From a virus: DNA of 64,000 nt. The notes beneath the pieces were generated by a model that searched no databases, was not told the origin of the DNA, and worked only from the letters and a program-made list of their open reading frames with translations. The position numbers and the translations under genes are program-made. The stretch lies in UHGV virus genome UHGV-0149956. One strand, 5' to 3'. Positions 585-3,761 of the stretch are shown here, one piece after another (within the stretch, counting starts at the first letter, position 1; each line of letters starts with the position of its first letter).

Positions 585-1482
585 GCACTGGAAAAACATT
601 ACTATTTATAAACTTTCTCGTGAGGCGGATCTGACCGACTTAGAAGATAAAAAGAAAATGATCCTTTTCACGCCATGCGGTAGTCAGGATATGGCCAAGT
701 TCGGTTTTGTATCTCCATTTGGTGATAATTCCGAAGTTATCGCTATGCATGGAAATGGTTTTATCCTTGTTGAAGCAAAGCGCGAAACAAAAATTCTTCC
801 CCCGCCGGTTATCCAGCGAGCTATTCAAGAAAAAATTGAAAAACTTGAGCAAGAACAAGCGCGTAAACTGAAGAAAACAGAGAAGGACTCCCTGAAAGAC
901 GAAGTTCTGCATTCTCTTCTGCCACGGGCTTTTTCAAAGTTTTCTGTTATCCAGGCGATCTACGACGGTTCAACTAAACGTATCTATATCAATGCCAGCG
1001 CGCGGCAGGCAGAGGATATGCTCGCGCTTATGCGTAAGTCTCTGGGTTCTCTTCCTGTTGTTCCCCTGAGTGTTGAAAATCCCATTGAATTAACGCTGAC
1101 CGACTGGGTACGTGATGGTAGTGCTCCACAGGGATTTCAAATGGGGGATGCGGCAGAACTTAAGGCAGTGCTTGAGGATGGCGGTATTGCCCGGGTGAAA
1201 AAGCAGGATTTGGGAAGCGATGAAATTTCCACACACCTGGAAGCTGGCAAGCTCGTCACTAAGTTGGCACTCGACTGGCAGAACCGCATTAAATTTACAC
1301 TGGACCATAACTTCAGCCTTACCAGCGTCAAATTTGCGGATGAATTGCTTGAGCAGAACTCTGATATTGATAGTGAAGATGTTGCGCAGCGACTGGACGC
1401 AGATTTCTTCCTGTTGACCAGTGAAATTTCGTGCCTGGTTGATGCTCTGGTAAATGCCCTTGGTGGAGAGGCTAAGCAGTGA
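577..1482 (+). CDS. hrdC: RdgC-family recombination-associated protein
   Basis: Collinear with E. coli RdgC as I recall it ([53 protein letters not shown]); start moved to ATG 577 ([13 protein letters not shown]) to match the RdgC N-terminus. Confidence 0.85.
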
Positions 1483-3743
1483 AAGAGCTGTGCTATGGAT
1501 CTGTTTGCAGTGGAATTGAAGCCGCGAGTATTGCCTGGGAACCGTTGGGTATGCGTCCGGTGTGGTTTGCTGAAATCGAGTCTTTTCCATCTGCCGTTCT
1601 TGCGCACCGCTGGCCCCATGTCGCCAACCTTGGCGACATGACAAAACTTGCCAAAAAAGTCCTGGCTGGGGAAATCGAATCCCCTGATGTGCTCGTCGGG
1701 GGAACACCTTGTCAGGCATTCAGTATCGCGGGATTACGTGGTGGGCTTGATGATGAGCGTGGCGCGCTAACTTTAAAGTATGTGGAGCTTGCAAATGCAA
1801 TTGACGACAAACGGGCTGAGTCATTTCTCAAACCAGCCGTTATCGTCTGGGAAAATGTCCCAGGAGTCTTGTCTTCGGCAGATAACGCCTTCGGATGTTT
1901 CCTTGCCGGATTGGCTGGAGAAGATGTGCCATTTGAACCAGGTGATCGACCTGAATCAGGAAAAAGCAACGCGTTCTGGCGGTGGGATGGCAAAACCGGT
2001 TGCCATGTTCCAAAGTGGCCGCAGTGTGGTTGTATTTATGGACCGCAGCGAAAGGTGGCCTGGAGAATCCTTGATGCCCAATACTTCGGAGTGGCACAAC
2101 GACGCCGACGCGTGTTTGTTGTCGCAAGTGCTCGAACAGACCTCGATCCCGCAACGGTACTTTTTGAGTTCGAAGGCGTGCGCCGGAATATTGCGCCGAG
2201 CCGAAAAAAGAAGGAAATCGCTTCCGCCATTACTGCAAATGGCGCTGCAATCAGTGGCGAAAGCCTAAATCCATGCCTACACGCTGGCATGTCCCCCGGT
2301 ATGAAATCGACGAAAGCCGTAAACGGTTTCAGGATGGCGGCATTTGGGGAATATATTGACGATGAAACCGCATCGACAGTAAAGGCAAGAGACTTTAAAG
2401 ATGCCACTGACCTTGCCGTTTTTAGCAGCACTGGAGCAGGTTTTTGGTCAGAAGGGCATGGTACATTGCGGGCGCGTGAGCAAGAAAGCCATGAGCATCT
2501 TGTTACATTGGCTTTTCCTGAGCGTATGAGTGGTACACAACATGCAGCAACTAAGAATACTTCACCATCTCTAATGGCTCAAAATCCAACTGCTGTTTGC
2601 TATGAAGTAAGAAACGAAGAAGTAGCTGTCCGCCGTCTTACCCCTGTCGAATGTGAGAGACTTCAAGGTTTTCCTGATGGGCATACGTTGATCCCTACGG
2701 AAAAGCGTAAAAAAGTTAATTCAGATGAACTGGCATATCTGCACAATCACTATCCAGATTTAAGCGAAGAAGAGGCCGCGATGCTTGCAGCTGACGGACC
2801 GCGTTACAAAGCGATCGGCAATAGTATGGCAATACCAGTAATGCGCTGGATTGGCGATCGGATTACTAAGGCCGTATGTCGGCAGAAAGAAGGAAGTGAA
2901 ACAAAAGAGCGAAAAGTTAAACCAGCGGCAGAATTCGAACGGTCCATATTCAAATGGGCTGGTGGAAAATTTGGTGTTCTGGAACAAATCTTTCGCTATT
3001 TGCCAGAAGGGAAGCGCCTGATCGAACCTTTTGTCGGTGGCGGAGCTGTCTTCACGAATGCCGGATACCAGGAAAATCTGCTAAATGATGTGAATGCTGA
3101 CCTGATTAACTTTTACAAGACTCTGCAACGCGAGGCGCATTCACTTATCACACTGGCGCATCGGTTTTTCCAGGACTACAACACACAGGAAGGATACCTG
3201 GCAGTACGGAATGCGTTTAACAAACAAGTCTATGATGATTTACATCGCGCAGCGGCGTTTTTGTTCCTGAACCGACATTGTTTTAACGGATTGACGCGTT
3301 ACAACCAGGCCGGTGAGTTCAATGTCGGTTATGGGAAGTATAAAACTCCGTATTTCCCATTACAGGAGATGGAAGCCTTCCTCGGTGCGGAAGGGCGTTC
3401 TGAGTTTGTATGTGGTGATTTTGCTGCGGTAATTGAAGCTGCCGGAGAAGGAGATGTCATTTTTTGCGATCCGCCATATGAACCGCTTCCAAATACAGAG
3501 GGATTCACGAACTATTCCGGTCATGACTTTAAGTTTGAAGAGCAAAAACGCCTGGTGTCTCTGTTGACGGATGCTCATCGTCGAGGTGCAAAGGTTCTCA
3601 TTACTAACAGTGGCGCGCCAAACATCAGAGAGCTTTATCATGACAGTGGCTTCAGAGTGGAACCTCTTTTTGCCAGACGTTCTGTGTCTTGTAAGGGGGA
3701 CACTCGAGGTGTAGCTCATGACGTTTTGGGTATATTGCTCTAA
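1479..3743 (+). CDS. dmt: bifunctional DNA methyltransferase: N-terminal C5-cytosine MTase fused to C-terminal Dam-like N6-adenine MTase
   Basis: N-terminal half has C5-MTase motifs ([12 protein letters not shown] catalytic Cys, [28 protein letters not shown]); C-terminal half has Dam motifs ([23 protein letters not shown]); GTG start overlaps hrdC stop. Confidence 0.9.
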
Positions 3744-3761
3744 TAAATTTATTAGTGTAAT
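3734..3761. promoter_or_regulatory. C1 operator (perfect 17-mer) with overlapping partial inverted copy
   Basis: ATTGCTCTAATAAATTT is 17/17 to consensus and contains the dmt stop codon; followed by ATTAGTGTAAT. Confidence 0.6.

Follow-up and report, generated by a model that had tools for sequence, protein, structure and literature searches.

dmt of a P1-like phage-plasmid encodes a fused cytosine/adenine DNA methyltransferase, and its stop codon lies within a predicted C1 operator of the ban operon

Phage P1 encodes a DNA methyltransferase, Dmt, that the P1 record (AF234172) labels as a 'bifunctional DNA methyltransferase; methylates GATC and perhaps C5 cytosine', and the same record annotates dmt, the operators Op68 and Op72ab and the promoters P1ban and P2ban at positions corresponding to those described here, as does the record of phage P7. 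GATC methylation activity has been reported for P1 Dmt, and reviews referring to Coulby & Sternberg 1988 and Sternberg & Coulby 1990 state that P1 requires GATC methylation at its pac site and that dmt frees the phage from host Dam; the gene is non-essential in a dam+ host. Orphan C5-methyltransferases (C5-MTases) are also found in the Bacillus phages SPR, phi3T and rho11, where specificity resides in exchangeable recognition modules between motifs VIII and IX, as reviewed. Here, we analyze a fused methyltransferase gene in a viral DNA sequence of 64,000 nucleotides (the window), for which an earlier note had singled out the fusion and a repressor site over its stop codon. Both belong to the textbook knowledge of P1, have been annotated since 2004, stand in the P1 and P7 records alike and are of little consequence as given: the observation is real but ordinary, since dmt has already been described and the repressor site is the known ban operator. 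What remains of interest is the cytosine half of the protein, its target sequence and its role.

At the nucleotide level, the window shares 98% identity and a collinear gene order with phage P1, and the product of the ORF at 1479-3743 is identical to P1 Dmt (AAQ14041) at 738 of 754 residues. The order of Op68, uhr, hrdC, dmt, Op72ab and the ban operon is kept as in P1 with collinear flanks, as expected of a dmt orthologue. The ORF runs on the + strand from a GTG start, which overlaps the TGA stop of hrdC as GTGA, to a TAA stop at 3741-3743, and dmt is present in 498 plasmids of PLSDB. We are confident that the gene is the dmt of a P1-like phage-plasmid, that it encodes a two-enzyme protein, and that the operator over its stop codon is Op72a of ban; the identity with P1 dmt, the domain content, the intact motifs, the identity of the operators and the pattern of selection are all results of this analysis. 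By its arrangement, dmt would be the last gene of a C1-repressed operon, Op68/Pdmt-uhr-hrdC-dmt, and translationally coupled to hrdC. The features of the locus are collected in Table 1.

Table 1. Features of the dmt locus and of pac, in window coordinates and, where applicable, Dmt residues
Feature	Position (nt)	Residues (aa)	Strand	Basis and remarks
C1 operator Op68 (Odmt)	212-228		+	16/17 to consensus; sequence and position as annotated in P1 AF234172
Pdmt	-35 228-233; -10 252-257		+	By position, from P1 annotation
uhr, first gene of the operon	300-584		+	Collinear with P1 uhr; ORF end at 584
hrdC, RdgC-family protein	577-1482		+	PF04381 RdgC, E=8.5e-98; P1 annotation
dmt, fused C5-cytosine/N6-adenine DNA methyltransferase	1479-3743	754 in all	+	ORF; Pfam/NCBIfam; P1 identity
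C5-MTase catalytic core	1479-2198	1-240	+	M.HhaI alignment; conservation in 132 family representatives
C5 motif I, CSGIEA		10-15	+	M.HhaI alignment
C5 motif IV, with catalytic Cys78	1710-1712 (Cys78)	74-82	+	M.HhaI alignment
PCQ	1707-1715	77-79	+	
C5 motif VI, ENV		125-127	+	M.HhaI alignment
C5 motif VIII, QRRRR		207-211	+	M.HhaI alignment
Variable target-recognition region of the C5 half, P1-type cassette	2199-2633	241-385	+	Comparison with P7 Dam and other relatives
C5 motifs IX and X (GNS), separated by an insertion of 30-40 aa	2634-2864	385-400 (IX); 447-449 (X)	+	M.HhaI alignment
Lys/Glu-rich linker joining the two enzymes	2865-2942	463-488	+	Between Pfam/NCBIfam domain limits
Dam-family N6-adenine MTase	2943-3722	489-748	+	TIGR00571; alignment to E. 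coli Dam 2g1p
DPPY of the Dam half	3468-3479	664-667	+	
P2ban and P1ban together	3718-3763		+	Serve the downstream ban operon: dicF-like region, tRNAs, tciABC, ban
P2ban	-35 3718-3723; -10 3744-3749		+	Transferred from P1 annotation, sequence identical
P1ban	-35 3735-3740; -10 3758-3763		+	Transferred from P1 annotation, sequence identical
C1 operator Op72a (Obana), dmt stop codon inside	3734-3750		+	17/17; identical to annotated Obana of P1 and P7
C1 operator Op72b (Obanb), 6-bp overlap with Op72a giving bivalent Op72ab	3745-3761		-	15/17; consensus match; P1 annotation
pac site, best-known substrate of the Dam half	33265-33423		.	7 GATC (4+3) in 159 bp; role from literature

Both enzymes are recognized by curated domain models. 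In Pfam, Dmt matches DNA_methylase (PF00145; E=5.5e-37, 128.3 bits against a cutoff of 22) in two stretches, the first at aa 8-135, and MethyltransfD12 (PF02086; E=2.9e-56, 191.5 bits against a cutoff of 22) at aa 493-725, and in NCBIfam it scores 121.8 bits with TIGR00675 (dcm superfamily; cutoff 100.65) and 247.8 bits with TIGR00571 (dam; cutoff 114.85). The complete 754-residue fusion claimed by the earlier note is thus borne out, with PCQ in the N-terminal and DPPY in the C-terminal part as it had stated, but the label 'Dcm-type' holds only at the level of the C5-MTase superfamily. The separate alignment of each half that it called for divides in the same way: the Dam half matches E. coli Dam, but the model of E. 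coli Dcm (CCWGG; NF007772) reaches only 23.2 bits on Dmt, far below its orthologue cutoff of 710. Loss of catalytic residues, the finding named as a refutation, is not seen, and the C5 motifs PCQ, ENV, QRRRR and GNS and the Dam motif DPPY are intact on alignment to M.HhaI and E. coli Dam, respectively. Dmt would be built as one polypeptide of two independent AdoMet-dependent enzymes with a charged linker between them, the linker differing in sequence between the two Dam alleles compared. An AlphaFold2 model of full-length Dmt from a 19-sequence alignment was too poor for use (mean pLDDT 32.5, pTM 0.28).

The adenine half belongs to the Dam family. Its AdoMet motif, FVGGGAVF (F518-V-G-G-G522), lies N-terminal to DPPY in the order of alpha-class enzymes, and its alignment to E. 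coli Dam (2g1p) spans Dam residues 4-266 of 278, with 264 aligned residues and E=9e-58. The roles of DNA-contact residues in E. coli Dam are known from Dam-DNA structures; K9, N120, L122, R124 and Y138 are kept in Dmt as K492, N603, L605, R607 and Y621, and P134 is replaced by Gly617. The equivalog model of E. coli Dam (NF008152) scores 242.8 bits on Dmt, below its cutoff of 441. Compared with P1, the Dam half is 100% identical in amino acid sequence, with 0 non-synonymous and 9 synonymous differences, and is under strict purifying selection. That the phage supplies its own Dam activity, as the earlier note had it, has long been established for P1 in the literature, and the Dam half found here is that of P1. 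The note's description of pac as GATC-rich also holds, the density given in Table 1 standing against a window average of 4.06 GATC per kb. With GATC specificity and the pac requirement both taken from the literature, the C-terminal enzyme would methylate adenine in GATC and, after prophage induction or infection, would keep phage DNA methylated, particularly at the seven GATC sites of pac; this methylation would be needed for pacase cleavage, and the phage would grow without host Dam.

For the cytosine half we infer both activity and role: the N-terminal enzyme would be a complete C5-cytosine methyltransferase with its specificity set by the exchangeable cassette at aa 241-385, and it would most likely methylate a short sequence, protecting progeny DNA from some restriction systems. 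A rather unlikely alternative is that this half is a relic without activity, or a purely structural or DNA-binding appendage, and that the Dam half alone matters. Our literature searches found no paper reporting C5 activity of Dmt, and GenBank says only 'perhaps at C5 cytosine'. Motif I, the AdoMet loop, is non-canonical, reading CSGIEA instead of FxGxG with Glu in place of the second Gly. However, 130 of 132 relatives keep this variant, which makes it characteristic of the family and no lesion, and because CSGIEA typifies a very large group of stand-alone C5-MTases it speaks against local decay. The core motif residues are invariant or nearly so among 132 family representatives (50% clustering), with Cys78, ENV, QxRxR and GNS strictly invariant, as would not be expected of a relic. 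The differences from P1 Dmt are concentrated in the C5 half, which contains all 16 differing residues against 0 in the Dam half, but with 18 non-synonymous against 24 synonymous substitutions this half, too, bears the mark of purifying selection; together with the 0 to 9 of the Dam half, it follows that both halves are constrained, Dam more so.

Two further observations would fit an inactive C5 half. Residue 74, which adjoins PCQ, is Gly in the window, giving the canonical GGTPCQ, and Trp in the sequenced P1 c1.100 strains; with Gly or Ala at this position in 132 of 132 relatives, it is the reference P1 that is the odd one. In phage 673R5, frameshifts disrupt the C5 half and leave the Dam part open. 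This last case, together with the toleration of a dmt deletion in a P1 laboratory strain, shows that the C5 half is dispensable at least in the laboratory. Separately, a zinc site formed by C140, C175, H176, C183 and C185 of the insertion at 131-195 was considered and rejected, as the wider family does not keep these residues.

Natural variation in the family is hard to reconcile with a dead domain. In P7 Dam and other relatives, the segment at aa 241-385 gives way to unrelated sequence of smaller or greater length between flanks that remain more than 90% identical. There are at least four cassette types among P1-like phage-plasmids; of the plasmids in PLSDB, 257 carry the P1 type and 184 the P7 type. 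A PHROG search with the target-recognition region by itself matched no family. A tandem array of target-recognition (TRD) units, like that of the multispecific enzymes of Bacillus phages, found no support, the best self-match (18) falling below the mean maximum of shuffled sequences (21.3). In 133 PLSDB plasmids, about a quarter of the relatives, an intein is inserted directly before the catalytic Cys; the window dmt has none, and literature searches found no report of an intein in Dmt. Conserved functional sites are the typical homing targets of inteins.

We consider it plausible from these sequence features that the C5 half is a cytosine methylase for self-protection, because its catalytic motifs are intact, its recognition cassettes are variable, and its active site has become an intein target in relatives. 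A more specific reading, less likely than not, is offered tentatively: the C5 half may be active in protecting DNA against restriction, with a specificity that changes as P1-like phage-plasmids exchange cassettes. Its activity would perhaps have been overlooked owing to the G74W of laboratory P1 (natural alleles such as the one in the window have Gly), and in about a quarter of natural copies the enzyme would need intein splicing with Cys78 as the +1 nucleophile. The exchangeable cassettes, the intein at the catalytic Cys and the suspicious G74W in reference P1 give a direct handle on this half of the protein.

It is improbable that the gene yields two products, full-length Dmt and a Dam-only protein from an internal promoter or start codon, which would make the fusion merely formal. 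The late promoter LPdam2 that the P7 record places within the gene, upstream of the Dam half, is a prediction with a weak sequence match; the detailed annotation of P1 contains no such promoter, and a consensus promoter scan calls none there. In-frame Met codons at aa 435, 450 and 455 and the separate Dam ORF annotated in 673R5 would suit a second product, but the single ORF is retained in hundreds of plasmids and in about eight clusters at 50% identity.

Scanning the window with the 17-bp asymmetric C1 operator consensus, ATTGCTCTAATAAATTT, gives 15 matches with up to three mismatches against 0.27 expected by chance, and only the match at 3734-3750 is perfect. The dmt stop codon does lie inside this 17/17 operator, but its presentation as a feature of the methylase does not stand: the site is annotated as Op72a, over P1ban and P2ban of the ban operon. 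An inverted half-operator with two mismatches lies at 3745-3761 and went unmentioned in the earlier note, although the range given there ends at 3761. The two overlapping inverted consensus copies form Op72ab, which has the same sequence as the Obanab annotated in P1 and P7. Judged by sequence, Op72a is half of Op72ab and is predicted to repress the two adjacent ban-operon promoters and not to regulate dmt; the operator predicted to control uhr-hrdC-dmt is Op68, upstream. A role of the stop-codon operator in the control of dmt, such as a C1 roadblock or control at the 3' end, is highly improbable: the operator physically covers the last three codons and the stop, and bound C1 could in principle block read-through from Pdmt, but the site is annotated as controlling ban, the dmt operon has an upstream operator of its own, and an 85%-identical dmt of another phage-plasmid lineage ends in a hairpin and T-run terminator with no C1 operator. 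This relative indicates that the overlap of stop codon and operator results from the way genes are packed in the P1/P7 lineage, and the ban promoters would extend over the final codons of dmt by coincidence. The coordinates of Pdmt, P1ban and P2ban rest on the P1 annotation, since the consensus promoter scan called none of them, and an Rfam scan of 1-8000 for the P1-annotated dicF-like region returned only three tRNAs at gathering score.

The closest known system is P1 Dmt itself (AAQ14041, AF234172; formerly P1 Dam), likewise 754 residues long and 98% identical, with the same GTG start over hrdC, Op68 and an identical Op72ab. It differs in 16 residues, all in the C5 half, among them W74 in P1 c1.100 for G74 here. 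The protein reportedly goes back to Coulby & Sternberg 1988, as P1 Dam, and to Lobocka et al. 2004. P7 Dam (AAQ07538, 672 aa) shares the fusion, the flanks and the operator overlap with the window, but carries an unrelated 63-residue target-recognition segment in place of aa 241-385, and therefore presumably has a different cytosine target. With E. coli Dam (2g1p) and DpnM, the Dam half has DPPY, the AdoMet motif and most GATC-contact residues in common; unlike E. coli Dam, Dmt is fused to a second enzyme, has Gly for P134 and falls below the equivalog cutoff. Motifs I, IV, VI, VIII, IX and X occur in the same order and with the same content as in C5-MTases of the M.HhaI/M.HaeIII type, but Dmt matches M.HhaI at only ~1e-9, has CSGIEA as motif I, and has motif VI set apart from VIII by about 40 additional residues, and IX from X by about 35; it is no orthologue of E. 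coli Dcm. The Bacillus enzymes of SPR, phi3T and rho11 are not fused to Dam, and unlike them Dmt has no significant internal TRD repeat, yet their exchangeable modules resemble the cassette variation seen in the dmt family.

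The earlier note read dmt as encoding a single 754-residue polypeptide that joins a cytosine and an adenine DNA methyltransferase, and this description holds: dmt is one open reading frame, and both domains score above their NCBIfam cutoffs. By megablast, the region 1300-3900 is 98% identical over its full length to phage P1 (AF234172/NC_005856) and matches 17 further P1-like phages. The P1 record names the counterpart ORF dmt, a 'bifunctional DNA methyltransferase' directed at N6 adenine in GATC and 'perhaps' C5 cytosine. The C5 and Dam halves together fall within a single 779-position profile, PHROG 116, which makes the fusion a phage protein family recognised in its own right. 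Indeed, the fusion and the operator at its 3' end are both annotated in GenBank for P1 and P7, and since these records hold every part of the finding, it was already known. Some NCBI records of Dmt (P0028, P0050) are named 'multidrug DMT transporter permease', an erroneous name that seems to have spread from the gene symbol.

The GTG start of dmt overlaps the TGA of the upstream gene hrdC in a GTGA, with GGAG ~11 nt 5' of the start. Because Odmt and Pdmt, as annotated in the GenBank feature table of the P1 genome, stand upstream of uhr, the transcription unit runs from Op68/Pdmt through uhr and hrdC to dmt, with overlapping stop and start codons, and dmt itself is governed by Op68/Odmt and Pdmt.

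Features of dmt, its operators and the neighboring ban operon region (window positions unless marked aa)
Feature	Position	Strand	Details
Op68/Odmt with promoter Pdmt	212-228		16/17 match; upstream of uhr
uhr	300-584	+	first gene of dmt transcription unit
hrdC	577-1482	+	RdgC-family gene, between uhr and dmt
dmt ORF	1479-3743	+	GTG start, 754 codons, TAA stop 3741-3743
Motif IV GGTPCQAFS			Cys78 opposite HhaI Cys81; structure alignment
Motif VI ENV	aa 125-127		structure alignment
Motif VIII QRRRR	aa 207-211		structure alignment
Motif IX	aa 385-400		structure alignment
Motif X GNS	aa 447-449		structure alignment
Op72a (Obana)	3734-3750	+	17/17 match; P1 annotation of operator over stop
Op72b (Obanb)	3745-3761	inverted	15/17 match; P1 annotation
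tRNA Asn(GTT)	4413-4488		ban operon region
tRNA Thr(TGT)	4491-4566		ban operon region
tRNA, CAT anticodon	6007-6082		ban operon region; ARAGORN, Met; P1 annotation, tRNA-Ile2

The dmt stop codon lies inside a perfect match to the C1 operator consensus ATTGCTCTAATAAATTT. The earlier note spotted this operator correctly but did not recognise it as Op72a of the ban operator, nor its partner Op72b; in the P1 record the two form the bivalent Op72ab over promoters P1ban and P2ban, which 'controls expression of ban'. With up to 3 mismatches allowed, the window holds 15 consensus matches against 0.27 expected by chance, and these are the known P1 operator set, spread over the genome. They range over 212-52983, with clusters at 17502/17551 and 36720-37283. 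The window is identical to P1 base for base across 3700-3770; in P7, whose record shows the same operator arrangement, the operator-promoter core (from about 3732) is likewise unchanged, and the only differences within 3700-3770 are a small number of bases 5' of that core, in the final dmt codons. An 85%-identical dmt from a different phage-plasmid lineage (protein P0004, locus L007), also preceded by rdgC, ends in a terminator-like hairpin plus T run (L007 3789-3830), beyond which lies a class-I aminoacyl-tRNA-synthetase-like gene in convergent orientation (PF00749, L007 3838-5289); no C1 operator was found throughout the 5.3 kb of this locus. Because this relative ends in a terminator-like sequence without the operator, the overlap of operator and stop codon is a chance result of how closely dmt of the P1/P7 lineage is packed against the ban operon, and does not belong to the methylase as such. 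Positions 3858-3959, 3' of the ban promoters, are the counterpart of the P1 'dicF-like region', closed by a terminator-like hairpin (3920-3943) and T run; an Rfam scan returned no family at gathering score for this region.

The Dam half is the more strongly conserved part of the protein. Pfam places a D12-class N6-adenine methyltransferase (PF02086, E=2.9e-56) at aa 493-725, and the TIGR00571 'dam' model gives 247.8 bits, above its cutoff of 114.85. As had been claimed, the C-terminal 280 residues carry the Dam motifs: they align to residues 4-266 of 278 in E. coli Dam (E=9e-58), taking in FVGGG and the catalytic DPPY (aa 664-667). Counterparts of E. coli Dam K9, N120, L122, R124 and Y138 are present, and P134 is Gly in Dmt; these residues contact DNA in the Dam-DNA structures. 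The Dam half is 100% identical in protein sequence between the window and P1, and all 9 nucleotide differences between the two are synonymous (0 non-synonymous), which indicates strong purifying selection. That the phage brings its own Dam activity is established for P1 dmt: reviews and papers that cite Coulby & Sternberg 1988 and Sternberg & Coulby 1990 state that GATC methylation at pac is required for P1 packaging and that dmt frees P1 from the need for host Dam, and a CRISPRi study found dmt non-essential in a dam+ host. The pac region (33265-33423) is GATC-rich, as noted earlier, with 7 GATC arranged 4+3 against an average of 4.06 per kb.

The C5 half likewise retains its catalytic residues. 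Pfam detects PF00145 (C5-cytosine DNA methylase, E=5.5e-37) split into two stretches, with the first covering aa 8-135, and alignment to the solved structures of M.HhaI and M.HaeIII (E ~2e-9) bears out the reported motifs, including PCQ. The label 'Dcm-type' is valid at the superfamily level only (TIGR00675 'dcm', 121.8 bits, cutoff 100.65), because Dmt reaches 23 bits with the E. coli Dcm model, whose cutoff is 710. In motif I, CSGIEA, Glu replaces the second Gly of classical enzymes; since this motif, like all catalytic residues, is invariant or nearly so in a MAFFT alignment of 132 wider-family representatives, it characterises the family as a whole and is no defect. Compared with P1, 18 substitutions in this half are non-synonymous, giving 16 amino-acid changes, and 24 are synonymous; it is still constrained, though less so than the Dam half. 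We infer from sequence that the C5 half is an active enzyme; a literature search found no report of C5 activity of Dmt, and the cytosine-methylase reading stands as an unproven hypothesis.

Some relatives carry changes in this half. Both sequenced P1 c1.100 strains (L001, L003) have Trp74 in VLVWGTPCQ, directly before GTPCQ, with codon TGG for the window's GGG (1698-1700). Gly stands at position 74 in the window, in P7 and in every other relative, and the 132 representatives have Gly (123) or Ala (9). We speculate that Trp74 is a laboratory-lineage lesion that might impair C5 activity of reference P1. In phage vB_EcoM-673R5 (L005 380-2642), frameshifts split the C5 half into several ORFs while a Dam ORF remains; either the C5 domain has become a pseudogene or the frameshifts are sequencing errors.

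Many relatives carry a 341-residue intein with Hint and LAGLIDADG domains, set exactly between Pro77 and Cys78 of PCQ. It starts CFTAG and ends VVHN; because this end directly adjoins CQAFS, the catalytic Cys78 would itself serve as the +1 splice nucleophile. Intein-bearing dmt occurs in 133 PLSDB plasmids, in phages RCS47 (L006 611-1633) and Ro157c2YLVW, and in the laboratory isolate 'P1 del res del mod' (L004, OP279344), whose dmt encodes 1013 aa. Among relative proteins, P0001, P0101, P0121 and P0130 bear it, P0130 being a cluster representative at 52% identity, and it is present in a protein cluster with 3523 member sequences. The window's copy is without the intein, whose insertion point corresponds to 1709/1710. 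A literature search found no paper describing a Dmt intein.

Overall, dmt occurs in 498 of 72,556 PLSDB plasmids, 482 of them non-mobilizable, as P1-like prophage plasmids should be. An exhaustive profile search found ~8 clusters at 50% identity in which the fusion is complete, and a very large family of stand-alone C5-methyltransferases with the CSGIEA/GTPCQ core, in which a variable region of 83-419 aa separates motifs VIII and IX. Among close relatives the Dam half has two alleles, and aa 241-385 of the C5 half (2199-2633 in the window) is replaced wholesale between flanks >90% identical. The window shares the P1 cassette (257 PLSDB plasmids); P7 Dmt (672 aa) has a 63-aa type in its place (184 PLSDB plasmids), proteins with a long type reach 822-862 aa, and a truncated type yields a 710-aa protein. 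No significant internal repeat of the target-recognition domain was found in Dmt. Such exchange is what diversifying pressure on a target-recognition domain should produce, and resembles in principle the modular target-recognition domains of Bacillus phage C5-methyltransferases.
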